19,785 nt of DNA from a virus. Taxonomy: Duplodnaviria; Heunggongvirae; Uroviricota; Caudoviricetes. Position 1 is the first letter of the stretch. Each line of letters begins with the position of its first letter. A model generated the notes under the pieces. It worked only from the letters and a program-made list of their open reading frames with translations, ran no database searches and had not been told where the DNA came from. The stretch is from the IMG/VR virus record IMGVR_UViG_3300000301_000085. One strand, written 5' to 3'. Shown here in pieces: positions 3,607 to 19,670 of this stretch. The position numbers and the translations under genes were made by a program.

Positions 3607-4884
3607 TCAGCCCTTTCCAGACGCTCTGCTTTTGTGNNNNNNNNNNNNNNNNNNNNNNNNNNNNNNNNNNNNNNNNNNNNNNNNNNNNNNNNNNNNNNNN
3701 NNNNNNNNNNNNNNNNNNNCAAGCAAGCTATTTACACGCTGGAAGTCATACATTTTTGCGGCACCAGATGAATTATCGATTCCCTGTGCGTTGTCCTGCT
3801 TCGTTCGCTCACCAGCTACACCAACTGAATGGTAGATTTCGTTAATCACCGTCTTAATCGTAGTGATGATCATCTGAGCTTGTTTCGGGTCTGGTGACAG
3901 ATAAAACGGCTGGTTTCCACCTTCAGAATCGTAGGTGAAGACTCGCTTTGTGCCCATTTCAAGCACTTTAGTGTGGTTTTCATCACCAGGTAAAAGCGAC
4001 TGTACCGGTATAGCCAACTGGCTAAATGTCTGATCCTGAATAATGGCATCAAGGTTTGACAGATAGTTTGCAACCGCACGATCAAGATAAGCGATATCAT
4101 CGATCAACGATGGGCTGAAATACGGTGATTCACTTTCTCCAATACAATCAACAGGAAACACAGGAACTACGCCGAGATTATGCTCACCGCTATCCTCTAA
4201 AATAACTTTTGCCTGACGGCGACCTGCTCCACCAGCGCCCTTCTTCACTTCCTCACGGAACAGATACCACTCGTTTTGTGTCCACAGACGATAACGTTGG
4301 TATTCCTGACCTGTAGAAGTAAAAGGATCTGCGTCATCACGAGCGACTTCCACAATTAACGCCCACAACATATTCCCGTCGTCGTCCCATGCCACATCAA
4401 GCATTTGCTGAGGTGAAATCCAGTAGGCGTAGGCGCGAGCATCTTTCTTTTTCTCGTCAGCTACTGACTCAACATCACCACTCATCGTGCTATCGACAAC
4501 AACCCATATGCGACCGTAAATAGACGACTGCAAATCAATAGCGGCCATAAATGAGTCAATAGAGGCATTCTGGCGAGTCGCACGTTTCCAGAAATTGCGG
4601 ATCTGCTCTGGTGCCTCTTCGATATTTCTATGAATGTCTTCTTTAAAGAGATATTTGTTGATGAGGTTTACCACCTCACGAGTGTGGTTGAAGCGATAAG
4701 CACGTTCAACTCGCTCCTTAAACTCCTGATCTCCCTCTTTAAAGTAACGAAAGATATTGTCTGTAAACCAACCACGCCCGCCAGCGTAAGTGCTGGCGAG
4801 GAAGTCCCAATGTTCTTTTTTCTTTTCGTATTCCGGGTGGCGTCGCGCCACCAGATCCTTAATTTGTTTGTCGTTCAATTCCAT
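3607..4884 (-). CDS. putative portal protein
   Basis: 425-aa ORF immediately downstream of terminase large subunit; TAAGGT SD before ATG 4884. Assignment by synteny and size. Confidence 0.6.
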   Translation of the reverse strand: MELNDKQIKDLVARRHPEYEKKKEHWDFLASTYAGGRGWFTDNIFRYFKEGDQEFKERVERAYRFNHTREVVNLINKYLFKEDIHRNIEEAPEQIRNFWKRATRQNASIDSFMAAIDLQSSIYGRIWVVVDSTMSGDVESVADEKKKDARAYAYWISPQQMLDVAWDDDGNMLWALIVEVARDDADPFTSTGQEYQRYRLWTQNEWYLFREEVKKGAGGAGRRQAKVILEDSGEHNLGVVPVFPVDCIGESESPYFSPSLIDDIAYLDRAVANYLSNLDAIIQDQTFSQLAIPVQSLLPGDENHTKVLEMGTKRVFTYDSEGGNQPFYLSPDPKQAQMIITTIKTVINEIYHSVGVAGERTKQDNAQGIDNSSGAAKMYDFQRVNSLLXXXXXXXXXXXXXXXXXXXXXXXXXXXXHKSRASGKG

Positions 4885-4910: not shown

Positions 4911-6167
4911 CTATCGTGAACCACCAAGAATAACACGGTTTTTGACTGGATACCTACGATGTACTGGATAGCCCAATGCGTCTGCACTATGCTCAATGCC
5001 ACCTGTCTTATCCATATCTCGTGTTCCAGGCTTGTAGATGACTTTTTCCAGTGAATCAATCAAATGCTTGCACTTCGGATCGATATACAGCCGGATATCT
5101 CCAGATGCGGTCATCAGCATTCGGTTAACAGCATTAACACGATCCGCAATTGGCGGGTGCTTTTTCGAATAATCGACACGTAAGAATCCCTTCTCTTTGA
5201 ATATGTCGACGTCAGACTCCCCGCGAGCATGTTGGCGATAAGCACCTGCCGGATCTGGAAATACCGTTATCTGTGATTTCCAGCGCCAGAAGCGTCTCTC
5301 AAGCTCATCACAAACCTCTGCCGTGTTAGAGGAAAAGAGCACCAATTCATCAATTGCCCATAGCTCACCATTTGGCTGAGGTTGCAAAATTACTGAAGAC
5401 ATCGGGTCAATGTTGAAGTCCTGCCCTACCCATATAGGCAACCGAGGGTTGAACTGAAGCGGTTTTACATGCACGTTACGATCGAACGGGTAGTAAACGC
5501 GCCCGGACATGTTCTCAAAGCTCGCCAGGTACTCCTGAGCGAACGATTTCGGGTCCATATCGTTCTTAGCAGCTTCAATTTCCGCCGTAGGTACAAACGG
5601 AGAATCGGCAGTTACAAACTGCCAGCTCTTCCACTGTCCCTTTCTTTGCAGCTCTACGTTCTGGCCTATAGTCCACAGTTTGTGAAATTCCGAGAAGCCT
5701 TTTGGCGTACCAATGATCAGTGCACCGCCGCGTGTCGATGAAAGAGTAGGTCGTAACACCTTGTACCAGGTGTCAGCCTTCATATCCTGAAATTCATCAA
5801 GCACTACAAAATGCAACGCTACGCCGCGCAGAGTGTCAGGCTTATCAGCACCTTTGAGGGCGATCTCCGAACCGTTCTTCAACACGATTGTCATCGTGGT
5901 GTCGTTCTTTTTCCTAACCCACTTACGAGGCAGAACTTCCTGTAGATCGTCCCACAAAATCTGGCGAGCCATCTGGTATGTAGGAGCGACATACCAGACC
6001 CTTTGCTTTTTTTCCTTTGCCGCCGCACGAATAATAGTGGAGATCGACAACCGGGATTTTCCCCAGCGTCGACCAGCACAAACAACTTTAAATCGATGCG
6101 GAGACTGGAAGACTTTCATCTGTCCAGAATGCAGTTGCACAAGACTGAGCGAGGACGGGATTGCCAT
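4911..6167 (-). CDS. terL: terminase large subunit
   Basis: Walker A VCAGRRWGKS, Walker B-like LHFVVLDEFQD, LIIGTPKG, C-terminal nuclease-like acidic motifs (VGQDFN, IEHSADALGY); start overlaps upstream stop (TAATG at 6165-6169). Confidence 0.9.
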   Translation of the reverse strand: MAIPSSLSLVQLHSGQMKVFQSPHRFKVVCAGRRWGKSRLSISTIIRAAAKEKKQRVWYVAPTYQMARQILWDDLQEVLPRKWVRKKNDTTMTIVLKNGSEIALKGADKPDTLRGVALHFVVLDEFQDMKADTWYKVLRPTLSSTRGGALIIGTPKGFSEFHKLWTIGQNVELQRKGQWKSWQFVTADSPFVPTAEIEAAKNDMDPKSFAQEYLASFENMSGRVYYPFDRNVHVKPLQFNPRLPIWVGQDFNIDPMSSVILQPQPNGELWAIDELVLFSSNTAEVCDELERRFWRWKSQITVFPDPAGAYRQHARGESDVDIFKEKGFLRVDYSKKHPPIADRVNAVNRMLMTASGDIRLYIDPKCKHLIDSLEKVIYKPGTRDMDKTGGIEHSADALGYPVHRRYPVKNRVILGGSR

Positions 6168-6799
6168 TATTCGTCCTCCCCTTCACTTCCATCATCTGTC
6201 GCATCAAATTCGCTTAGAGCTTCTTCTTCCAACGTCTCAAGCAATTCGTCATCGATGATTTCAGGCTCGTCGTCTTCCTGACGTAATTTCGCCACCTGGG
6301 AAGGCGTAAGCTCACCAAATACCAGGTTCGGAATTTCTTCCTCGTCATTTTCCGCATGATCCATGCCCAATGCTTTGGACGAAACTTCAAAGCATTTTGC
6401 AAGGGTATTACTGGCTCTCTGTAAGCTCTTGAGAGAATCCTCAATCGCCACTAAAGGCTTACCCTCACGTTTGGCCGTAGTGACTTCGACCATCACCATC
6501 TGCCCCAACGCATACGCCCAGCCGTCATAACGTGTACGACGTTCTTCTATCTTTTCCGCACGGGCTTTAGCGCGAAGCTCTGCGTCAGATTTAAGAGACT
6601 CACGAACCATCTTCCCAACAGAGTCCGCGCCTTTCTCTAATCCTCGCTTTTTGAAATGTCTGGAGAGTGTTTCACGACGAATGCCGTACTCTTCCTCCAG
6701 CTTTGAGAGTGTATATTCGCCTGACGTCCATTTGGCTTCAGCTTCGGCCCACTCCGCTGGTGTCAGGCGAGTTTTTACCTCGTCTTTTTCGACCGTCAT
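6167..6799 (-). CDS. terS: putative terminase small subunit
   Basis: 210 aa, N-terminal HTH-like segment (TLSKLEEEYGIRRETLSRHFKKRG), strongly acidic C-terminus, translationally coupled to terL. Confidence 0.6.
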   Translation of the reverse strand: MTVEKDEVKTRLTPAEWAEAEAKWTSGEYTLSKLEEEYGIRRETLSRHFKKRGLEKGADSVGKMVRESLKSDAELRAKARAEKIEERRTRYDGWAYALGQMVMVEVTTAKREGKPLVAIEDSLKSLQRASNTLAKCFEVSSKALGMDHAENDEEEIPNLVFGELTPSQVAKLRQEDDEPEIIDDELLETLEEEALSEFDATDDGSEGEDE

Positions 6800-6805
6800 A
6801 GATCC

Positions 6806-6838
6806 CTCTAAAACACACAGAGCGCGTCCATGCGCTCT
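6806..6838 (-). terminator. terminator-like hairpin plus U-tract in the leader just before the terS SD (possible attenuator)
   Basis: Plus-strand AGAGCGC-GTCCAT-GCGCTCT (6819-6838); the minus transcript reads hairpin then GUGUGUUUUAGAGGGAUCU-AUG. Confidence 0.45.
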
Positions 6839-6879
6839 AAAACAACTTGTTTACTGCATCTGCTAACCAACTTGTTTTC
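6839..6879. promoter_or_regulatory. two copies of the AACAAcTTGTT palindrome (operator-like) in the late-operon leader
   Basis: AAAACAACTTGTTTA at 6839-6853 and ACCAACTTGTTTTC at 6866-6879; same core as elements upstream of the small genes at 16.6-19.7 kb. Confidence 0.5.
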
Positions 6880-6994
6880 TGGGGTGTTTAATTAGGTCTG
6901 GCATGTCTTACGAAGCCTGCTTCCGTATATATTTAATAAGTTACTTATTATTTATATATACAGATGCAGGTCTTTAAATAAGCTCCCAGACCGA

Positions 6995-7261
6995 TTACAT
7001 CACCAGTAACTTCGCTTTGGCTCGACCTAAAGTGGTTAACCCAAGAGTCCGGCGGTGATAGCGATTGTCACTGCGTTGGCGCGTATGCCCTTTCTCCACC
7101 AGCCCCTTTTTTATCAGAGCGCGAATTGAGAACTGGATACTTTGCTTGGTTGTCTTGTACGGCAAAACTTCAAGCAATTCGTCCAGGTCAAGTAGATGAC
7201 CTCGCTCATAACCGAGATTGAGCGTTTTGATGATGTCCTTTTGTTTATCGGTTAACGTCAT
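6995..7261 (-). CDS. small winged-helix/HTH-like DNA-binding protein (candidate regulator)
   Basis: 88 aa, basic; AAGGA SD before ATG 7261; helix-like segment TTKQSIQFSIRALIKKGLV; sits between the cassette and the late leader. Confidence 0.5.
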   Translation of the reverse strand: MTLTDKQKDIIKTLNLGYERGHLLDLDELLEVLPYKTTKQSIQFSIRALIKKGLVEKGHTRQRSDNRYHRRTLGLTTLGRAKAKLLVM

Positions 7262-7361
7262 GGCAAATCCTTATGCCGGTAAAGCAATTTCTAACGGTTT
7301 ATCCAAAGGTTGTTTGTCGAATGCCAGCAGTGGCAGCGTGTCAGGCAGTCGACGGCCAAAG

Positions 7362-8316
7362 TCAGGGTTTCGGTACACACCATACAACGGANNNNNNNNN
7401 NNNNNNNNNNNNNNNNNNNNNNNNNNNNNNNNNNNNNNNNNNNNNNNNNNNNNNNNNNNNNNNNNNNNNNNNNNNNNNNNNNNTGTGAATGTCCTTGAGC
7501 AGCTTCACAATGCTGGCCTCGTCCACCAGACTGTCGGCAATGTCCTGAATCGTCGTGCCACGATTCCGCCCAGCTTTTGCCAGGGAACTGTTCTTATGGT
7601 AGTCCGCCACCAAATCGCGCAGCGCACGGCGACGACGAGACTCGCTCATAGCGAACAACTCTTTGACGATCGCCTCGTTATCACCCGGGTCGGAGCGGAA
7701 ATGGCGCTGGAACACACGCAGTGCACTTTCATAGCTCTTCGGTCGCTCAGGGCGGATGAACTTAAACCCTGCTTTCATGGCGAAGGGATTGTATTTGCTC
7801 ATCGAGGACTGGATCTCAATGATTGGCCGGTCATGCATCCTGCTAACCAGGTTAATCATTCGATAAGAGACGCCTACGCCACGATACTGAGTATCCACAA
7901 CTGAGCGACTGATCACCGCAAAGTTGTTATTCACGTACCGACCCCAGTANNNNNNNNNNNNNNNNNNNNNNNNNNNNNNNNNNNNNNNNNNNNNNNNNNN
8001 NNNNNNNNNNNNNNNNNNNNNNNNNNNNNNNNNNNNNNNNNNNNNNNNNNNNNNTTGGTTTCAACTTAGGAAACATGCGGTGGCGAGGTGCCAACAGTAG
8101 TTTCGGGTAAGCCATAACCACGACGCCCACCAGACGGTCATCAAGTTCGCAGCGATAGTAAGTTGGCGCGAAAGGTTTGCCGTCTGTTTTGTAGTGAAGC
8201 GACTTAAGAGCGTGCCAGTCCTCTACAGTCCCCTTTGTAACAGTCATTCGCTCCAGAAAGTCCAGATGACGCGGAAACTCTTCAGGGCGGTAGCGTTTAA
8301 TGATGATGTCCGTCAT
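7362..8316 (-). CDS. GNAT-fold acyltransferase-like protein with C-terminal extension (interrupted by masked segments 7950-8054 and 7392-7483; frame differs across the first)
   Basis: N-part LVGVVVMAYP (beta strand); C-part FAVISRSVVDTQYRGVGVSYRMINLV (R-G-x-G motif A-like) and NPFAMKAGFKFI (motif B-like); start ATGA-coupled to the upstream ATPase stop (8313-8316). Confidence 0.45.
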
Positions 8317-9064
8317 GAATGGACCTCATCATGAATACCATTGTGATATTCCACCTTCACGCGTTCTTTGTAGTGCTTGGTGATCTGCATATCAGGGCGC
8401 AGCGCGTTCTTCAGGTCTTCGTGAGTCGTCGCCACCATTACCGTCGCACCAACCTTTCGAGCGGCACGCTGGAGGTTAGACGCCACAACCTGAGCGGTTA
8501 CACGGTCGAGAACAGCGCCGAACTCGTCAGCAGCCCATACTTTAGCGCCTGACTCAATCAGTTTGGCAATCTTGAGACGATATTTCTGGCCGTCTGACAT
8601 TTCAGAAGGCTTGCGAACAAACAGATATGCATCGTTCAGACCAGCCATAGATANNNNNNNNNNNNNNNNNNNNNNNNNNNNNNNNNNNNNNNNNNNNNNN
8701 NNNNNNNNNNNNNNNNNNNNNNNNNNNNNNNNNNNNNNNNNNNNNNNNNCGCATCACTGGTCGTTTTGCCCAACTGATCGATGACGTTAACCTCATTATC
8801 GAAGGTAAAATCATCGATGGAGGCTACAGACAGCCCTTCATCCTTCATCTGTCGTTGCAACTCGCGCAGCACAACGGATTTGCCGGAACCGGATTGGCCG
8901 GTGATGTACACCACATCGCCCTGCTTCACTTCCAGCTCCAGATTGTCGTAAAGCGTCCACTCTTTTTCGTCCAGGCCAAGCCCGAACGACTCAGCGATTT
9001 CCAACGTGCGCGTGGTTTTATTTACGCGTGTCTGAAACGATACGTTGATGATGTATTTGCTCAT
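8313..9064 (-). CDS. ABC-type ATPase (nucleotide-binding-domain-like, ~250 aa; two ORF segments, frame changes at masked segment 8654-8749)
   Basis: Walker A YITGQSGSGKS; signature-like SDGQKYRLKIAKL; Walker B/D-loop VWAADEFGAVLD; H-loop MVATTHED; ATGA coupling to the ParB-like gene at 9061-9064. Confidence 0.7.
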
Positions 9065-9729
9065 GCAGCCATCTCCCCGGAAGAGATCTTCTCCGCATAT
9101 GCCACAAATGCGTCTACCCCGCTTTCTCCCGTCATTTCTTCCATATGGGCAAGCAAATCACCAACAACAATGGCAGAGCCAGCAGGGAGCGTTTTAAAGC
9201 CCAATACGTCGACAACACGTACTTCTTCCGCTGCAACTTCACGACTGATCTCGGTGTGTTCATCCTTCTGTCGTTTAGTTTCTTCGCCAAGATCGATAAC
9301 TAGCGAGTCGGTGTCCATTTCTTCTGTCATACTGCCAACGAGAACATTCAACTCACGCTCTTCAAAGCCGAAAACCTCGATATCGTCCAGAACAAGCGAC
9401 TCAAGCTCTTTCTGTAGCTTAATTGCATCGTAATCAATGCTGGCAAGTCGGTTATCTTCAAGGCGCTTCGCACGAACCTCGTCATCACTGAGATCATCGC
9501 GAACAATAACCGGTACGCGCTCAAGTCCAGCAAAAATTGCAGCCTCACGGCGGCCGTGGCCAGTAATAATTACGTCGTTCTTATCGACCGTAATTGGCTG
9601 GTCAAATCCGCGCTTTTTAATGGCTGCGGCCAGATCTCTGATCTGCTGTTCATCATGCTTTTTGGCATTCATCTCATAGGGAATAAGATCTGCCGGGTCG
9701 CGATATACGATTTCAAACTTTTTGGTCAT
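9061..9729 (-). CDS. ParB/Srx-like N-terminal-domain protein (paralog 2)
   Basis: ITGHGRREAA (GxxRxxA ParB box); ATG at 9729-9727 overlaps the upstream stop (TAATG). Confidence 0.75.
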   Translation of the reverse strand: MTKKFEIVYRDPADLIPYEMNAKKHDEQQIRDLAAAIKKRGFDQPITVDKNDVIITGHGRREAAIFAGLERVPVIVRDDLSDDEVRAKRLEDNRLASIDYDAIKLQKELESLVLDDIEVFGFEERELNVLVGSMTEEMDTDSLVIDLGEETKRQKDEHTEISREVAAEEVRVVDVLGFKTLPAGSAIVVGDLLAHMEEMTGESGVDAFVAYAEKISSGEMAA

Positions 9730-10409
9730 TACATACGCTCCTTGTAGTAGTCGACCAGCCACACCAGAGCCTCACCAGCGTTCTCCATTTCATTACCGGT
9801 GTTAATAGCCTGCTCTTTGATGATGTTTTTTATGGTTTCTGCAACACGATCTGACGCATCGAAAGTTACTTTGAAGCGCATGGTCTGATGTTCCGCACCC
9901 ACACGTTCGGTTTTCTCTCGTTTGTCGGTATCGACAGGCTCATCACTACCACGAGACAACGCCTCCAGTGCTTCAAGGTCGATTGCCGCCTCTTTTGCTA
10001 AAACCATCGAGATTTCGTCGTCATACGGAGCGATTTCAGACAGTTGATAGTCAAGTTCTGACTGAATTTCTTCAATGAAGCGTTGCAATGCGATTTGGTC
10101 GTCTTCACCGTATCGCTCGTTGTCCACCAGTGACATCTGTTTAGCTACGACATCGCTAATTTTGCCCACAGAAAGCACCGGAACCGTTGAAATTCCTTGC
10201 TCAATAGCAGCACGCCAGCGATGTTCACCGCCGAGGATTTCAAAAAATCCATCTTCAAGTTCACGAGCCAAAATTGGCTTAAAAAAGCCCAATTTTTCGA
10301 TAGAACCTTTCAGTTTTTCAAAATTCTGCGCACCAACCGAATTGGTGTTCCAGGTATTCGGGCGAAGGTTGGCAACATCAACCTGCAAAATCGTGATTTT
10401 TACATCCAT
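9729..10409 (-). CDS. ParB/Srx-like N-terminal-domain protein (paralog 1)
   Basis: ILGGEHRWRAA ParB box; ATG 10409 preferred over GTG 10427; first gene of the leftward operon. Confidence 0.75.
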   Translation of the reverse strand: MDVKITILQVDVANLRPNTWNTNSVGAQNFEKLKGSIEKLGFFKPILARELEDGFFEILGGEHRWRAAIEQGISTVPVLSVGKISDVVAKQMSLVDNERYGEDDQIALQRFIEEIQSELDYQLSEIAPYDDEISMVLAKEAAIDLEALEALSRGSDEPVDTDKREKTERVGAEHQTMRFKVTFDASDRVAETIKNIIKEQAINTGNEMENAGEALVWLVDYYKERM

Positions 10410-10491
10410 TTTATTGCTACAATCCACTAAGTAATCACTTACTTATTATAATAGCCAAATAACATACAAAAGGCACTAAGGAAAGAGGTTT
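10410..10491. promoter_or_regulatory. divergent promoter region with palindromic operator-like site
   Basis: TATAAT at 10447-10452, palindromic with its minus-strand counterpart; inverted repeat TAAGTAA-TCAC-TTACTTA at 10428-10445; AAGGAAAGAGG SD before ATG 10492. Confidence 0.5.
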
Positions 10492-12131
10492 ATGACTGTT
10501 CGGATTGTATCTAACGCAGTAAATGCGCTTATTTCTGGCGCAGATGACAAGGTAAAGCAACTGGTGCAGCAAATGTTGAGCTACGAAGTCGAGACTGGCG
10601 ACTGGAAGGGCACAAGCACGATGTTCAACTGGAGTAAAAACTCGTTCCCTGCTGGCTTTGCCAAGCCTGTAGCGGCGAACTTGAACAAGGCGGGCATCAA
10701 ATGTGTTCATATCCGCAAAGACAAAGCCCCGGCGCTTGGTAAACCAAATCCGGCGGTTAACCCATTCCCATACAATCCTGATTATGCATATCAGGATCAG
10801 ACTGTGGAAACACTGGTTCGAGAGGGAATGATGATTGCGCAGATCGCTACTGGTGGCGGGAAATCTAACGTTGCCTGCAAAGCAGCTGCACGTATCGGTC
10901 GAATGACATTATTTTTAACAACCCGCTCTGTTCTGATGTTTCAAATGGCCGAAAACTTCCAGAGATCCATCGACTACCGCGCCGAAAATGGCGAACCGTG
11001 GTTAAAAGACCAAAAGGTTGGAGTCATTGGCTCGGGTGAGTTCCAGGTATCACGACATATCAACGTCGCTACAGTTCAAACTCTGGCAAGTTTCCTTGAA
11101 GAACCACCACGCGATGCAACACCAGATAAAAAGAGCTACCACCTCAAACGTCGGGAGCTAGTGAAACGCTTCCTTTCAAGTGTGTCTCTGCTTATTCTGG
11201 AAGAAGCGCATGAGTCTTCAGGCTCTAATTTCTATGACATTGCCAGATTATGTGTGAACGCAGACTATCGTCTGGCGCTTACGGCCACGCCGTTCATGAA
11301 GGATTCTACAGAAGCCAACATGCGTCTGATGGCTGTGGCCGGTCGAATTGAAATTAAAGTCACAGAAAAGTACCTGATTGATCGAGGCATTCTGGCAAAA
11401 CCGTACTTCCTTTATCATAAAGTTGCTTACAAGCCAGACGAGGTCAGAATCAAGGCGGAACTTGCCAACAAACACCTTAATTTTAGAGTTGGTATGAGCA
11501 CCGCCTACCAAAAGGCTTATCAGTTGGGGATCGTGTATAATTTGGGACGTAACNNNNNNNNNNNNNNNNNNNNNNNNNNNNNNNNNNNNNNNNNNNNNNN
11601 NNNNNNNNNNNNNNNNNNNNNNNNNNNNNNNNNNAGGCCATAGTGCGCGAGGCATTGCTTTATAAGCAACATTCACTCAACTGCATGACTCTGGTTCGTC
11701 TTAAACGCCACGGGCAAATCCTGATGGAGATGATGAAGGAGTCAGGTCTTAAAGTTGATTTCATCTATGGGGAATCTAACCAGACGACAAGGCAAGCAAA
11801 GCTGAATAGTTTAGCGTCTGGTGAAATAGATGTTTTAATAGGCTCGACTATTCTGGATGTTGGTGTTGATGTGCCAAGCGTTGGTGCGGTCATTCTTGCT
11901 GGTGGTGGGAAAGCAGAAGTTGAAATGAGACAGCGTGTCGGTCGTGGCTTACGAGCCAAAAAAAATCAGGCAAACGTGTGTTTTATCACTGATTTCATTG
12001 ACATTAGCAACAAATACCTGTTGTCTCACTCTTATGAGCGAAAACACATCATCGACACCACACCTGGCTTTGCAGAAGGTGTATTGCCTATTGATGGAGC
12101 ATTCGATTTTGGAGTTCTGAAACGAGATTAG
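10492..12131 (+). CDS. superfamily-2 (DEAD/DEAH-like) helicase; two ORF segments across masked 11554-11634
   Basis: Motif I IATGGGKS; motif II LILEEAHES; motif III LALTATPF; C-terminal motif VI QRVGRGLR; ~110-aa N-terminal extension. Confidence 0.8.
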
Positions 12132-12133
12132 TT

Positions 12134-12412
12134 ATGAGTGAAAAGAAAACAACTTACTGTCAGGTAGCATTGTCTGATAAGGCCAATGACAAACTTGGAA
12201 AGTTTCAAGTGAAACTAAAAGAAAAAAATATCAAAATGTCTAAGGCTGAAGTCATAAATACCATTCTGGAACAATTGACAATGGCCGACTTTGACAAGGT
12301 TATATCTTCTGTCGGGGCTTCCGCTAAGACTCGTGAGAAAATCATGCGTATCTATGAGAACTCTAATATGACAAAGGAAGATCTCGAAACGCTATTAAGC
12401 AGATTAAAATAA
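12134..12412 (+). CDS. small protein, possible ribbon-helix-helix DNA binder
   Basis: 92 aa; starts 3 nt after helicase stop; N-terminal beta-strand then two helices (TTYCQVALSDKANDKLGKFQVKLKEKNIKMSKAEVINTILEQL). Confidence 0.45.
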   Translation: MSEKKTTYCQVALSDKANDKLGKFQVKLKEKNIKMSKAEVINTILEQLTMADFDKVISSVGASAKTREKIMRIYENSNMTKEDLETLLSRLK

Positions 12413-12438
12413 TCACGCTATCAATTAGGGAGACAAAG

Positions 12439-12873
12439 ATGAAGTCTCCCATACTGTTCACTTTCTGTTCTAAAACTAACATGAAATACTCGCTTCTCCC
12501 TCTACTAACGTTACCAGTGTTGATGCTTACCGCGTGCCAATCACGTCCAATATCAATCCATGACGCCAAACCAGCACCGCAGGCCAAAGTGTTCAAGTAT
12601 CAAAGCGCAGCGCCAGCTACGTTGGTGGTAATGAGAGACACAGGTTTTGTAGGAGCTGGATGTGATGCTTCCATTTTCATCAATGGCGAAACTGTCGCAA
12701 AACTGGCTACAGGCGAAAAAGCGACTTTTCATTTAAATGCCGGAGAANNNNNNNNNNNNNNNNNNNNNNNNNNNNNNNNNNNNNNNNNNNNNNNNNNNNN
12801 NNNNNNNNNNNNNNNNNNNNNNNNNNNNNNNNNNNNNNNNNNNCTCTTGAAGGTGCAGGTTTATGTGCTCTAA
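12439..12873 (+). CDS. putative lipoprotein (3' end uncertain, masked 12748-12843)
   Basis: GGGAGA SD; hydrophobic signal with lipobox-like LTAC then Cys (MKYSLLPLLTLPVLMLTAC); alternative start at 12481. Confidence 0.55.
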   Translation: MKSPILFTFCSKTNMKYSLLPLLTLPVLMLTACQSRPISIHDAKPAPQAKVFKYQSAAPATLVVMRDTGFVGAGCDASIFINGETVAKLATGEKATFHLNAGEXXXXXXXXXXXXXXXXXXXXXXXXXXXXXXXXLLKVQVYVL

Positions 12874-12909
12874 ACCCCGCTCGTCAAGAGCGAGAAACGA
12901 CTCTGAAGA

Positions 12910-13440
12910 ATGGAGACACAAAAGCGTTCAGGGTGTTCACCAGCAATTCTGGTGACATCGACATTCTGCCAACAACTCTGTGATGACATGACAACCAAAG
13001 ATATTACCTACGGTATCCAAGCTGAACTCTGGCCGCGAGATTACACTAACGTTGAAAAANNNNNNNNNNNNNNNNNNNNNNNNNNNNNNNNNNNNNNNNN
13101 NNNNNNNNNNNNNNNNNNNNNNNNNNNNNNNNNNNNNNNNNNNNNNNNNNNNNNNNNNNNACAAATTCCTGTAAGGGTCACTCTCGAAGATGGCCAGGCG
13201 TTTTGCATGTACGTTTATGGCCTCATGCCATCTCGTAACAAAGTTGACCTTTGCCCAGCCCCTTTTGACAAAGAAAATCGTATAAGGCTCCCACTTGAAC
13301 GCATTAGTACAATTGAATCAGGTGTGGTTGANNNNNNNNNNNNNNNNNNNNNNNNNNNNNNNNNNNNNNNNNNNNNNNNNNNNNNNNNNNNNNNNNNNNN
13401 NNNNNNNNNNNNNNNNNNNNNNNNNTCAAAGGTCGACTAA
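12910..13440 (+). CDS. hypothetical protein(s); two masked segments, continuity unproven
   Basis: Open frame through masks 13060-13160 and 13332-13425; no recognisable motif; weak SD. Confidence 0.3.
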   Translation: METQKRSGCSPAILVTSTFCQQLCDDMTTKDITYGIQAELWPRDYTNVEKXXXXXXXXXXXXXXXXXXXXXXXXXXXXXXXXXXQIPVRVTLEDGQAFCMYVYGLMPSRNKVDLCPAPFDKENRIRLPLERISTIESGVVXXXXXXXXXXXXXXXXXXXXXXXXXXXXXXXXSKVD

Positions 13441-13539
13441 CAGTTCACCCTGATTATGTCGATAATCGGCCATCACGCCGCGATTTTTTTGCAATTTGCA
13501 ACCAAGCCTACAAAGCAAACAAATCTATAAGGGTGTACA

Positions 13540-13668
13540 TGGCGGATGGCCGTGAAATTGAGGGGGTGTCAGCAGGCGCAGATGCTTGTCAGGTTACACT
13601 ACGTGTCGAGAACGGTAGAAAAATAGTTGTTTTGTTCGATTGGGTTGAACGAATTTTGCCTTTTTGAG
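13540..13668 (+). CDS. small hypothetical protein (42 aa)
   Basis: AAGGGTG SD; ATG 13540; stop 3 nt before the next start; below the ORF-track size cutoff. Confidence 0.3.
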
Positions 13669-13670
13669 TT

Positions 13671-13979
13671 ATGAAATCGATATTGTTACCACCATTATTT
13701 TTACTTTGCTCAGTTGCGGCAAATGCAATGGACTATAAGCCTGTCATTCAGTCGCTGATGAATGACGTGTGCTCAACGTCTCAGAATGTATCAGTTTGCA
13801 TGTATCAATTTTCGGCAGCCGTAAAAGCAGGAAAAGCGATAGGTGAGAGTGTGGAACTGTGTAAGAAAGTGGCAAATGAAGAACGGGCAATGTTGGATTG
13901 CGAATCTAGCGAGTCATCGGCACAGTTCGTTGATGCGCTATTTGACACCAATCGTAAGGCTGTAGAGTCTGTTCAATAA
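13671..13979 (+). CDS. small secreted (periplasmic) protein, four Cys in mature part
   Basis: Signal peptide MKSILLPPLFLLCSVAANA with AxA cleavage motif; followed by a terminator. Confidence 0.55.
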   Translation: MKSILLPPLFLLCSVAANAMDYKPVIQSLMNDVCSTSQNVSVCMYQFSAAVKAGKAIGESVELCKKVANEERAMLDCESSESSAQFVDALFDTNRKAVESVQ

Positions 13980-13991
13980 ATCTATAAGGTT

Positions 13992-14022
13992 AATAACCGG
14001 CTAAGTCCGGTTATTATTTTTC
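13992..14022 (+). terminator. intrinsic terminator
   Basis: AATAACCGG-CTAAGT-CCGGTTATT followed by ATTTTT. Confidence 0.65.
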
Positions 14023-14147
14023 ACATCACTTCTTTATATCTATAAATCAAATAACCTAAATATATATAAGGTCTAAAGCCGGAATCGATTATTTATTTAG
14101 GGAACACCTTCGACGATCTCGCTTTTATTTCTAGGACTTTCATCCCT

Positions 14148-14204
14148 GCAAAAAATTTAAAAAAAACACTTGCAATCTTTTTTCGCATATCGATAATTGA
14201 ACTC
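14148..14204 (+). promoter_or_regulatory. strong sigma70-type promoter with upstream A-tract
   Basis: -35 TTGCAA (14170-14175), 16-nt spacer, -10 GATAAT (14192-14197); A-tract AAAAAATTTAAAAAAAA upstream (UP-element-like). Confidence 0.6.
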
Positions 14205-14262
14205 GTCGAAAGCGAAGACACTAACGACAATAAATTTTAAATTTACATAAGGAAAAATTATC

Positions 14263-14913
14263 ATGGCTAACATTATCATTTCTAAAAAATCCATCGTTGA
14301 AGCTGCTTCCATTGTATCCGATGAACTGCGCGAAAAAGCAGATCTGGCAACTCAAACATATAACGAACATTATAAAAATGGTACGCACACTAAAGCAGAC
14401 AAAGCAAATATGCAAGCTGCGACCACTAAACTTGCTTACTTCATCAACAACGTTGTAAACGCTGTAGAAGACGAAAAATTATGCTCTGTTTTCTACTATG
14501 CGATTAAAGCAAGCAAACAAGCGCCAGAAGTATTTTTCCGTGATGCAATGACTAATAGTTATTCTCTGGAAAAACTGGTTTATCTGGTTAAATCCATTAA
14601 AGCTGGCAAATGTGTTTATTCCGTCGCTGATATGTCAGGATCTCGTGTATTCGCTTTAATCGATATGATTAACGACGAGATCGACACGTTCACCAATGGC
14701 GCTGTTTTCGATTTAATGAATGAAGCTAAAAAAGCGTGTGAAATTAAATTGGACGCTGGCTATACTCAAGCCAACCAGTTGATCAATCTTTGCGAACGTC
14801 TTGGACTTGTTGAAAAAGTCAAAGGAGCTGGGAGCGCGAAAGCTGGTACTCAGCAATATCGCTTCATTAAAAATGATTTCTACAATTATTTAGCTGATGC
14901 TTTCAAAGCGTAA
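14263..14913 (+). CDS. hypothetical protein (216 aa), predicted to be highly expressed
   Basis: TAAGGAA SD 8 nt before ATG; AT-rich but uses host-preferred codons (GCT, GAA, AAA, ATC, TTC, CGT/CGC); no recognisable catalytic motif. Confidence 0.7.
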   Translation: MANIIISKKSIVEAASIVSDELREKADLATQTYNEHYKNGTHTKADKANMQAATTKLAYFINNVVNAVEDEKLCSVFYYAIKASKQAPEVFFRDAMTNSYSLEKLVYLVKSIKAGKCVYSVADMSGSRVFALIDMINDEIDTFTNGAVFDLMNEAKKACEIKLDAGYTQANQLINLCERLGLVEKVKGAGSAKAGTQQYRFIKNDFYNYLADAFKA

Positions 14914-14925
14914 TTAATGGAATCA

Positions 14926-14944
14926 AGCGCCCACTATGGGCGCT
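14926..14944 (+). promoter_or_regulatory. intergenic hairpin (attenuator-like), no U-tract
   Basis: AGCGCCCA-CTA-TGGGCGCT directly after stop 14913 and before SD AAGGAG; a second copy (right arm TGGGCGCTTTTTT) emerges from the mask at 15520-15535. Confidence 0.4.
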
Positions 14945-14961
14945 TTAAAGGAGCTTTAAAG

Positions 14962-15165
14962 ATGGTCAGCTATGACAAGATCCGCGCGGAATATCGCGCA
15001 AAGTATCGCGCTTATAAACTGGAATTAATCGATGATTTGATCGCGCAACGCGACCAATTAAATTTTACGTTTTCTGATTTGCTTAACAGCAAGCGAGATT
15101 GCAAGCGCAAACGTGAATACTTACGTTTAAGCGCATTAATCGGAAAACTTCAAAATTCTATTTGA
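14962..15165 (+). CDS. small basic protein (67 aa)
   Basis: AAGGAG SD 9 nt before ATG 14962 (ORF-track start 14917 lacks an SD); K/R-rich, helical. Confidence 0.5.
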   Translation: MVSYDKIRAEYRAKYRAYKLELIDDLIAQRDQLNFTFSDLLNSKRDCKRKREYLRLSALIGKLQNSI

Positions 15166-15186
15166 TTTTTTTTAAGGAGCTTAATC

Positions 15187-15567
15187 ATGTTTGTTCTTAT
15201 CGCTGGCGTTAACGTCCATAATGAATATTATGTTAATCGCATCGCTGGGATAGCTGGTTACGCTGGGCGCTCAGTCGAGTTTATCGATGAAACAACGCGT
15301 AAAATTGATTTATTGAGCGACCAGGAGCGAAAAAAAGCAGACGTGAACGACGCTGATATATTTTTAATGTTAAAAGCGTTTGTAGAAATGGGATTTAAAA
15401 TCAGTTTACACAAATNNNNNNNNNNNNNNNNNNNNNNNNNNNNNNNNNNNNNNNNNNNNNNNNNNNNNNNNNNNNNNNNNNNNNNNNNNNNNNNNNNNNN
15501 NNNNNNNNNNNNNNNNNNNATGGGCGCTTTTTTCGTTTCCAATACTCCCACCATAACGCGCCAATGA
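15187..15567 (+). CDS. hypothetical protein (3' end uncertain, masked 15416-15519)
   Basis: TAAGGAG SD before ATG 15187; N-terminal 76 aa readable; the post-mask tail may be out of frame. Confidence 0.45.
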   Translation: MFVLIAGVNVHNEYYVNRIAGIAGYAGRSVEFIDETTRKIDLLSDQERKKADVNDADIFLMLKAFVEMGFKISLHKXXXXXXXXXXXXXXXXXXXXXXXXXXXXXXXXXXXMGAFFVSNTPTITRQ

Positions 15568-19373: not shown

Positions 19374-19670
19374 TTAATCTTCGTCGTCCGGGAACTCGCT
19401 GTGTACCGCGCCCACCAGCTCCCGCTTTTCATCTTCACTCAGCAGGTGCCAGATATNNNNNNNNNNNNNNNNNNNNNNNNNNNNNNNNNNNNNNNNNNNN
19501 NNNNNNNNNNNNNNNNNNNNNNNNNNNNNNNNNNNNNNNNNNNNNNNNNNNNNNNNTTCTGCCGGGACGAACGACCACAACTTGCGGTACAACTCCGGCC
19601 CCACTGCATCCAGACACTCAGCCAGGGAATCCACGCCCCACACCTCAACCGTCACAGGCATCTTAATCAT
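19374..19670 (-). CDS. small acidic protein (about 98 aa, middle masked 19457-19556)
   Basis: GAGGA SD before ATG 19670; acidic C-terminus EFPDDED. Confidence 0.5.
   Translation of the reverse strand: MIKMPVTVEVWGVDSLAECLDAVGPELYRKLWSFVPAEXXXXXXXXXXXXXXXXXXXXXXXXXXXXXXXXXXIWHLLSEDEKRELVGAVHSEFPDDED

Follow-up and report, generated by a model that had tools for sequence, protein, structure and literature searches.

A five-gene cassette next to the terminase genes of an SSU5-like phage-plasmid

The IMG/VR virus record IMGVR_UViG_3300000301_000085 (Caudoviricetes), a stretch of 19,785 nucleotides that is referred to below as the window, carries on its minus strand an intact five-gene phage cassette encoding two ParB-like proteins (A and B), a soluble ATP-binding cassette (ABC) ATPase (C), a protein with the GNAT fold (D) and a small putative DNA-binding protein (E). 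Genes A (9729-10409) and B (9061-9729) encode orphan ParB/Srx-fold proteins of 226 and 222 amino acids (aa), assigned to phrog_723 and phrog_930, respectively; they are followed by genes C (8313-9064) and D (7271-8316) and, 9 nt downstream of D, by gene E (6995-7261), which encodes an 88-aa putative winged-helix protein (phrog_900). An earlier note, made from the letters of the window alone, had described the first four as co-directional genes with stop and start codons overlapping at each junction (TAATG at 9731-9727, ATGA at 9064-9061 and ATGA at 8316-8313), and this description holds, with identical gene junctions in the RefSeq annotation of a 100%-identical plasmid. The motifs listed in that note were likewise found where expected, namely ILGGEHRWRAA in A, ITGHGRREAA in B, GQSGSGKS, SDGQ, WAADEF and TTHE in C, and RGVGVS and FAMKAGFKF in D, and the two ParB boxes are indeed paralogous, the N-terminal 116 aa of A and B being 33% identical.

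The plasmid in question is the Escherichia coli phage-plasmid pTHO-010-2 (NZ_AP022542.1), a 113-kb, low-copy, non-mobilizable SSU5-like element of the IncFIB type, which is 100% identical to the window at all bases outside the N masks. The region 7200-10500 shares 99.1% identity with Escherichia phage Cyrano and 81-99% identity with other SSU5-like phage-plasmids. The window contains 11 N runs of 81-118 bases each, of which four were checked against the identical plasmid. Three of these lie in the cassette: the 96-N mask at 8654-8749 in gene C stands for 10 nt, and the masks of 105 N at 7950-8054 and 92 N at 7392-7483 in gene D stand for 26 and 16 nt, respectively. Because the masks are longer than the bases that they hide, they create false frameshifts in the reading frames that span them. 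For this reason gene D had been taken to end at 7362, where the TGA is an artifact of the masks; its true stop is the TAA at 7271. In the unmasked plasmid sequence, which the note had proposed to inspect for disruption of the ATPase and GNAT genes, both are intact and encode proteins of 221 aa (C) and 296 aa (D). Disruption of C and D in the masked segments was therefore rejected.

Genes C and D correspond to the two halves of a viral ABC-GNAT fusion family

The product of gene C is a minimal ABC nucleotide-binding domain of the transporter type without a coiled coil. Its Walker A motif (GQSGSGKS), signature (MSDGQ), Walker B motif (VWAADEF) and H-loop (TTHE) are all intact, and it matches the Pfam profile ABC_tran at 50.4 bits, compared with a cutoff of 25. 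The product of gene D consists of an N-terminal GNAT fold (residues ~1-165) and of a conserved C-terminal extension of helical/beta structure with the motif NPDxGR...LPLxAFDxQ at its end. Structures were predicted for B and D, and the model of D is of the GNAT fold, the closest folds being those of protein and small-molecule acetyltransferases. D has no Pfam match at E <= 0.01, the Acetyltransf_* profiles included; acetyltransferase profiles do match some of the fused homologs discussed below (Acetyltransf_10 in P0201, Acetyltransf_1 in P0229, and an ABC-GNAT paralog in locus L098). The predicted acyl-CoA-binding motif of D, YRGVGVS, is of the R/Q-x-x-G-x-G/A type, and its residues R119 and G122 are invariant in 64 homologs. 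The database name of D, "ATP-binding subunit", is wrong, since the protein has a GNAT fold and no ATPase domain.

A profile search with D retrieved 979 proteins, many of them 450-500 aa long with the match to D in the C-terminal half. ABC_tran was detected N-terminal of the D match in all ten long hits (465-1260 aa) that were scanned with Pfam. Against a profile of the fusion, C matched at positions 2-214 (E = 6.9e-88) and D at positions 211-463 (E = 4.6e-33). This collinear match to the two halves, a Rosetta-stone relationship, identifies C and D as the split form of a single predicted ATPase-acyltransferase that belongs to a large, uncharacterized viral ABC-GNAT fusion family of the COG2401 type. 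The family comprises more than 2000 relatives, including proteins from Bathyarchaeia, Nitrososphaeria, Methanocella and prophages of Firmicutes, and the databases name it, along with the D homologs, "ABC-type ATPase with predicted acetyltransferase domain" (COG2401/MK0520 type). With the COG2401/MK0520-like fusions C and D share an unusual N-terminal motif before Walker A, the LSDGQ, HY(K/R) and RxVVxPxYRGxG motifs, and end-to-end alignment; the cassette differs in that the two halves are encoded by separate, translationally coupled genes and in that D has a longer, lineage-specific C-terminal extension. In the fused family, too, the ATPase motifs of C and the counterparts of R119 and G122 of D (R320 and G323) do not vary, and this invariance in both split and fused forms suggests that the ATPase and acyltransferase activities have probably both been retained. 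Several relatives carry additional domains: a LAGLIDADG intein interrupts the ATPase domain of P0166, family B DNA polymerases are fused to the N-termini of P0204 and P0177, and P0154 has a C-terminal TFIIB-repeat region.

The junction between the ABC and GNAT genes, a direct overlap in the element represented by the window, is an insertion hotspot in its relatives, where it accommodates small hypothetical ORFs, Phage_gp49_66, a RyR-domain protein or DUF2829 (L002, 1235-1489, SSU5_128; L004, 8961-9999; L005, 5646-5981; L006, 6390-6892).

TmcA/NAT10 is a P-loop ATPase fused to a GNAT domain that makes N4-acetylcytidine in RNA at the expense of acetyl-CoA and ATP. This combination of a P-loop NTPase and a GNAT acting on a nucleic-acid base offers what appears to be the closest mechanistic analogy to the ABC-GNAT proteins, although the TmcA ATPase is of the helicase and not of the ABC type, and no homology was detected beyond the superfamily level. 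The analogy extends to the gene neighborhoods, in which the ABC-GNAT genes are accompanied by ASCH proteins from the family that strips N4-acyl groups off cytosine (PMC6972931). Homology of D to Mom, the GNAT-like DNA adenine modifier of phage Mu, was considered and rejected, given that the identity is 12% and nine generic GNATs score higher; Mom differs also in having neither an ATPase nor a ParB partner.

The ParB-like proteins and the small gene E

Both A and B match the Pfam family ParB_N (PF02195) above the gathering score (E = 3.2e-13 for A) and are members of the ParB/Srx fold; A in addition matches phrog_723 at 1e-78. The phosphate-binding motif and the (E/D)N box (DNE in A) read GGEHRWRAA and VDNER in A and GHGRREAA and LEDNR in B, where G57, H58, G59, R60, A63, D92 and N93 are invariant in 39 homologs. 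The N-terminal domain of B is of the type that is fused to phage DNA methyltransferases (phrog_498, 1.7e-31; PADLOC MTase_II, 2.9e-17), and the top structural match of the B model is a "ParB domain protein nuclease". In a phmmer alignment, A matches Spo0J (1vz0) across residues 7-154 and thus aligns weakly into the central region of Spo0J, beyond the N-terminal domain. The Pfam scan of A and B returned ParB_N only, with no helix-turn-helix (HTH) match; the B model contains no confident HTH, and the LG[KR]GL ParA-binding motif is not visible in either sequence. The product of gene E yields weak winged-helix matches (Sta1/Lrs14 HTH), and its position is kept in all relatives examined.

In phages, the 5mYOX thymine dioxygenase, which modifies DNA, is activated by its cognate ParB-like protein, specifically on double-stranded DNA (PMC13229309), and fusions of ParB folds to methyltransferases are frequent in phages, with a ParB-acetyltransferase fusion also present in bacteria (PMC12704722). 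A and B resemble these proteins in being short phage ParB/Srx proteins without an adjacent ParA. In both cases a nucleotide-binding domain at the N-terminus is followed by a small C-terminal domain, a domain for DNA binding is not obvious, and an enzyme is encoded next to the ParB protein, often near the terminase genes. The differences are that the partner here is an ABC ATPase together with a GNAT, that there are two ParB paralogs, and that the cassette is known from its sequence only.

The earlier note had also drawn an analogy with the Dnd/Dpd systems, in which a ParB-fold protein accompanies DNA-modification enzymes. Apart from the ParB/Srx fold, which is common to these systems and to ParABS, this analogy found no backing: the cassette includes no ParA, DndA/C/D/E, TGT-type DpdA or coiled-coil SMC-like ABC protein, no Dnd/Dpd partner genes (DndA/C/D/E, DpdA) were found in its neighborhood in the window, and PADLOC yielded no Dnd/Dpd match for A, B or D and only a marginal P-loop match for C (DndF, E = 0.0023). 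The identification of the cassette as a Dnd/Dpd/BREX-like defense component was rejected on these grounds.

Distribution and genomic neighborhoods of the ABC-GNAT module

The combination of these genes and their position ahead of the terminase genes had been considered unusual. They are in fact widespread: megablast detected the cassette in 772 plasmid records, including 307 from Klebsiella, 218 from Escherichia, 91 from Enterobacter, 62 from Yersinia and 49 from Salmonella, and hundreds of viral contigs, from lineages that are not related, have the order ParB, ABC-GNAT, terminase. The ABC-GNAT core as such is present in at least 900 uncultivated viral contigs (in two sampled clades) and in archaeal proviruses. 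Among cultured phages, homologs of D were found only in siphoviruses of ~105-120 kb, namely the SSU5-like, Rhizobium RHEph10-like and Pseudomonas nickie-like (Nickievirus) phages, Stenotrophomonas phages and Xanthomonas phage JGB6. All SSU5-lineage loci examined share the order helicase (divergent), ParB, ParB, ABC, variable small ORFs, D, small HTH protein, gap, terS-like gene, TerL and portal, and the synteny is preserved across classes of Proteobacteria where identity is down to 40-44%, whether the element is a virulent phage, an integrated prophage or a phage-plasmid. Two prophage regions with a chromosomal location, of which one is part of a 3.27-Mb contig, carry the cassette, as do nickie, RHEph10 and JGB6, all isolated as free viruses.

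The gene neighborhoods of the fused proteins were analyzed in the best-scoring 80 loci of each of two scans. For the archaeal-type fused set, with 362 relatives in the viral contig collection, TerL is encoded immediately upstream on the same strand in 40 of the 80 loci, at distances of -19 to 189 nt and often with an overlap; nine of ten sampled upstream TerL proteins match Pfam Terminase_6N. In several other loci of this set, a tail protein gene takes the place of TerL. The shorter ABC-GNAT clade, which was detected in at least 564 viral contigs and includes proteins of Leptospira phage LE3, Gordonia phages Jace (gp86) and AnClar (gp2) and Burkholderia phage phiE255 (gp29), was analyzed in 71 loci, 65 of them with sufficient flanking sequence. 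In 36 of these 65, a gene-B-like ParB gene is located directly upstream on the same strand, mostly with an overlap of 22 or 4 nt, and in 43 a ParB gene lies at most three genes away; TerL is encoded downstream on the same strand in 49 of the 71 loci, at a median distance of 709 nt. A profile built from the 36 upstream proteins matches the gene-B family with an hhalign probability of 99.96% (E = 5e-39).

The order is also seen in cultured phages. Prophage 315.4 of Streptococcus has the arrangement ParB, ABC, x, ASCH, x, TerL; AnClar has ParB, HNH, ABC-GNAT, methyltransferase and terminase; and LE3 has ParB, ABC-GNAT, small ORFs and TerL. In Gordonia phage Jace (L092, gp85-gp88), the ParB and ABC-GNAT genes are followed by those for an aspartate decarboxylase and a truncated CoA-transferase-III-like protein, and the same sub-module is present in four further loci (L098, L100, L102 and L109), one of which, L098, encodes a second ABC-GNAT paralog. 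Among the 150 genes located between ABC-GNAT and TerL, the most frequently recurring families are represented by seven for ASCH proteins, five for aspartate decarboxylases, five for CoA-transferases of class III and six for small terminase families, and C5 methyltransferase and formyltransferase genes were also found as neighbors. The aspartate decarboxylase and CoA-transferase-like genes suggest synthesis of a beta-alanyl-CoA donor, the CoA-transferase matches being close to the threshold; a regulatory relationship of the PanZ-like GNAT-PanD kind is a possible alternative. In the Mu-like phage phiE255 (L095, gp29-gp30), ABC-GNAT follows directly on the tail-fiber genes, in the position that mom takes in Mu, and overlaps a gene for a putative formyltransferase. 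In a Heliorestis prophage, ABC-GNAT precedes amidoligase and GGACT genes and TerL, and in a 98-kb phage contig it is located between RecJ and DNA polymerase III alpha. What all these contexts have in common is viral DNA, either newly replicated or close to packaging.

Of the 80 loci from the first scan (L011-L090), 27 have an ABC-GNAT match that ends at most 400 nt from the end of the locus, and in the second clade (L097-L176) many ABC-GNAT genes start 500-900 nt from the start of the contig, leaving room for one ParB gene. This bias could reflect a location of the module at the physical end of the genome, or the trimming of proviruses.

Control regions flanking the cassette

Downstream of the cassette, the window encodes a phrog_867 DNA-binding protein of 210 aa that is the probable small terminase subunit (6167-6799, minus strand), its stop codon overlapping the start of the gene for the 418-aa large terminase subunit TerL (4911-6167, minus strand), and then the portal, scaffold and major capsid proteins, in agreement with the gene order given earlier. 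That the cassette heads this terS-terL operon, as the note had it, is not established and probably wrong, because the two gene blocks are separated by a promoter-like intergenic region of 195 nt (6800-6994). This region contains a near-perfect, AT-rich palindrome of ~55 bp (6916-6970) between gene E and terS, a terminator-like hairpin (6839-6818) and, within a promoter-like element, two copies of a 13-mer, AAACAAGTTGTTT, at 6840 and 6865. Phages Cyrano and SSU5 have linear GenBank records that both stop at the equivalent of position 6933 of the window, inside the palindrome, which could mark the end of the genome or the start of packaging or serve in regulation.

The 13-mer, itself palindromic, occurs with at most two mismatches at nine sites in the window, the two already mentioned and those at 13620, 16624, 17109, 17859, 18762, 19247 and 19703. 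These give 16 strand-matches compared with 1.04 expected, a number that none of 200 shuffled sequences reached. Most of the sites, on the minus strand, are part of a longer conserved element, GATAATTA-ACACCAACAAGA-AAACAAnnTGTTT, located 12-30 nt upstream of leftward starts, and look like a family of phage promoter or operator elements. No copy is present upstream of gene A, in the 82-nt divergent control region between A and the adjacent helicase gene (10410-10491), which has, on the cassette strand, a perfect TATAAT and the inverted repeat AAGTAA..TTACTT. A scan for sigma-70-type promoter and terminator consensus sequences produced matches at or below the chance level, so the assignment of operons relies on the repeated motif. 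The presence of the 13-mer before terS and its absence before gene A indicate that the terminase operon probably has its own promoter and that the cassette is probably a separate unit located just upstream.

A possible role in acylation of phage DNA

DNA modification and an accessory role in packaging were among the explanations originally suggested for the cassette, and the comparative evidence points in this direction. We tentatively favor, with somewhat less than even confidence, the view that the cassette encodes a late-expressed, ATP-dependent acyltransferase that uses acyl-CoA to modify phage DNA and is loaded onto DNA or activated by its ParB partners; DNA as the acceptor, the late timing and the role of the ParB proteins are what we infer from the comparisons. 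Several observations argue for this view. C and D are the halves of what is elsewhere a single ABC-GNAT protein, and this family is linked to DNA-handling genes, by its association with TerL and its fusion with or adjacency to DNA polymerases, with one homolog carrying an intein in its ATPase domain. The gene-B-like ParB gene directly upstream recurs in the unrelated phages 315.4, Jace, AnClar and LE3, and for phage ParB-like proteins there is precedent as activators of a DNA-modifying enzyme. The aspartate decarboxylase/CoA-transferase, ASCH, C5 methyltransferase and formyltransferase neighbors suggest acyl-donor and base chemistry, the phiE255 gene follows the tail-fiber genes as mom does in Mu, and the synteny of the cassette is retained over considerable sequence divergence.

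Under this view, the module would be made late, beside the terminase genes. ATP would bring the ABC domains together as a dimer that clamps or remodels the double-stranded phage DNA. Then, no later than packaging itself, the GNAT domain would acylate an exocyclic base amine, or some other acceptor bound to the DNA, with a CoA thioester as the donor. In SSU5-like phages this donor would be acetyl-CoA or a different acyl-CoA of the host; it would probably be beta-alanyl-CoA in the phages that encode the aspartate decarboxylase and the CoA-transferase-like protein. A and B, probably as a heteromer, would serve as nucleotide-dependent DNA-loading or activating partners, as in the ParB-methyltransferase fusions and the ParB-dependent thymine dioxygenases, and E would contribute sequence-specific DNA binding or regulation.

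A more specific form of this proposal, fairly improbable as it stands, is that ABC-GNAT is the writer of an ATP-dependent base N-acylation new to viruses, with N4-acyl-deoxycytidine as the most economical guess. The acyl group would be acetyl in SSU5-like phages and beta-alanyl where the aspartate decarboxylase and CoA-transferase-like genes are added, the ParB-fold proteins would act as DNA loaders, and the base would be modified while the DNA is being packaged or shortly before. The neighboring ASCH proteins might be its readers or erasers, given that ASCH proteins have been characterized as N4-acylcytosine amidohydrolases and as erasers of (tRNA) ac4C (PMC6972931; bioRxiv 10.64898/2026.02.27.708502). 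If true, base N-acylation would represent a new chemical class of phage DNA hypermodification and would assign a function to a family found in hundreds of viral contigs and in hundreds of phage-plasmids of clinical Enterobacteriaceae.

Some of the evidence weighs against DNA acylation in either form. None of the papers that the literature search turned up describes modified DNA in SSU5-like or nickie-like phages. Protein and small-molecule GNATs are as close to D as Mom is, and the acceptor could thus be a protein, a polyamine, tRNA or a metabolite. ParB is encoded in only one of the 80 archaeal-type loci, so it is not universally required. The neighbor counts come from crude ORF calling and in-house HMMs; in particular, Pfam ParB_N is recognized in 18 of 64 upstream neighbors, the count of 36 resting on the in-house profiles, and a GxxRxxA-like motif is kept in 24 of the 36 gene-B-like ParB proteins, the protein in L098 having AGNHTVMA at this place. 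The ParB partners without the motif may have lost nucleotide binding. Mutations in the NTP site have been reported not to abolish the function of the 5mYOX-associated ParB, which the motif loss echoes. Finally, modification genes usually have a patchy distribution, and strict core-gene status beside the terminase genes is found more typically with factors for assembly or packaging.

It is this last point that is better explained by the main rival, a serious though not a probable alternative, in which A-E form a nucleoprotein complex at or near the pac/cos site that helps the terminase to recognize, cut or thread the genome, in analogy with the HNH proteins that assist terminases. The ParB proteins would then be a site-specific clamp or nuclease and the ABC dimer a DNA clamp, while the GNAT would acylate the terminase, the portal, a head protein or counter-ion polyamines, or would be only a CoA-sensing regulatory domain. 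The frequent adjacency to TerL, often with overlapping genes, and the invariable presence of the cassette beside the terminase genes throughout a lineage of ~110-kb siphoviruses are readily accounted for by such an accessory, as are the palindrome-rich region that the cassette abuts and in which the SSU5 and Cyrano records end, the position of ABC-GNAT at the ends of many viral contigs, the HNH and ParB genes that adjoin it in AnClar and the nuclease annotation of the top structural match of B. It leaves unexplained, however, the fusions with DNA polymerase B and the placement in replication modules, as well as the acyl-donor (PanD and CoA-transferase-like), ASCH, methyltransferase and formyltransferase neighbors; a separate terS-like gene is already present, and in phiE255 the gene follows the tail-fiber genes, far from those for packaging. 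Whichever of the two, acylation of phage DNA or assistance to the terminase, proves correct, the outcome would be informative, revealing either a DNA acylation chemistry with ParB-fold loaders or a class of terminase accessories common to bacterial and archaeal tailed viruses, and the comparative pattern turns a block of "hypothetical proteins" into a testable system that predicts acylated virion bases or a packaging defect.

A role in host takeover or anti-defense is unlikely. Here ABC-GNAT would acylate a host protein or RNA, such as a defense effector, a nucleoid protein or tRNA (in a TmcA-like manner), and the ParB proteins would be NTP-consuming or nuclease effectors. The similarity of the D fold to protein and small-molecule acetyltransferases, the resemblance of C to ABC-F/transporter-type nucleotide-binding domains that bind ribosomes, the activity of ASCH proteins as tRNA ac4C erasers and the "tRNA-methyltransferase" gene that adjoins ABC-GNAT in AnClar speak for this idea, and conflict roles have been proposed for ParB-fold proteins on mobile elements (PMC10853773, PMC12704722). 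Anti-defense genes, however, are usually variable accessory genes, whereas the cassette is core and syntenic across classes of Proteobacteria; PADLOC gave no meaningful match, and the linkage to TerL and DNA polymerase B points to viral DNA. For a virion-delivered, Dar-like module, which the note had offered as one possibility, the analysis yielded no evidence, no test aimed at it having been made.

The databases label A and B as "ParB-like partition proteins", and they might accordingly be expected to bind the centromere and so segregate the plasmid prophage of the SSU5-like type, C taking the place of the usual motor. The low-copy, non-mobilizable nature of the phage-plasmid and the alignment of A with Spo0J beyond the N-terminal domain would fit partition, which is nevertheless highly improbable and was rejected: the scores of A and B against TIGR00180 are 43 bits each, compared with a cutoff of 58.45, ParA is absent, the Pfam scan shows no HTH in A or B and the B model none with confidence, the LG[KR]GL motif is not visible, the cassette occurs in chromosomally located prophages and in phages isolated as free viruses (Nickievirus, JGB6), and the block is always tied to the terminase genes and not to the replicon. 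The earlier statement that A-C are not a ParAB pair, the ATPase being of the ABC type, is thus upheld, and the profile searches that the note called for identify neither an ordinary partition system nor a transporter. The chance that C is a component of an ordinary ABC transporter gained as a moron, as the name "ABC transporter ATP-binding subunit" implies, is next to negligible, and this reading was rejected: C matches ABC_tran and many NCBIfam models of transporter ATPases (E = 1e-10 to 1e-17), but all NCBIfam scores are far below the curated, equivalog cutoffs (61.9 bits for the best, compared with 195), no membrane protein, permease or binding-protein gene was found in or beside the cassette, nor a transmembrane partner in any locus examined, D is not an ATPase, and what C corresponds to specifically is the N-terminal half of the viral ABC-GNAT proteins.

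The module has thus been annotated but misnamed, and our literature search found no paper on the cassette or on COG2401. The present analysis corrects its routine annotation as a transporter or partition system and adds to the emerging view that ParB-fold proteins have roles beyond chromosome segregation.

Other features of the window

On the other side of the cassette, a gene for a 519-aa UvsW-like DEAD/DEAH helicase (10492-12131, plus strand) is transcribed divergently. It is a single gene in the identical plasmid, where the 81-N mask at 11554-11634 corresponds to 1 nt, and its split appearance in the window is due to this mask; the helicase is the conserved left neighbor of the cassette across the lineage. 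The remaining N runs are located at 1884-2001, 3637-3719, 12748-12843, 13060-13160, 13332-13425, 15416-15519 and 19457-19556. The portal and capsid ORFs, like those of the helicase, C and D, span masks, and their broken appearance in the window need not be real. Scans of the window for tRNAs and Rfam families found no RNA genes. The GC content of the segment at ~12000-15500 is 0.33-0.38, compared with 0.43-0.49 in the cassette and the structural genes, which suggests that this part of the rightward genes past the helicase is accessory or was gained by horizontal transfer.

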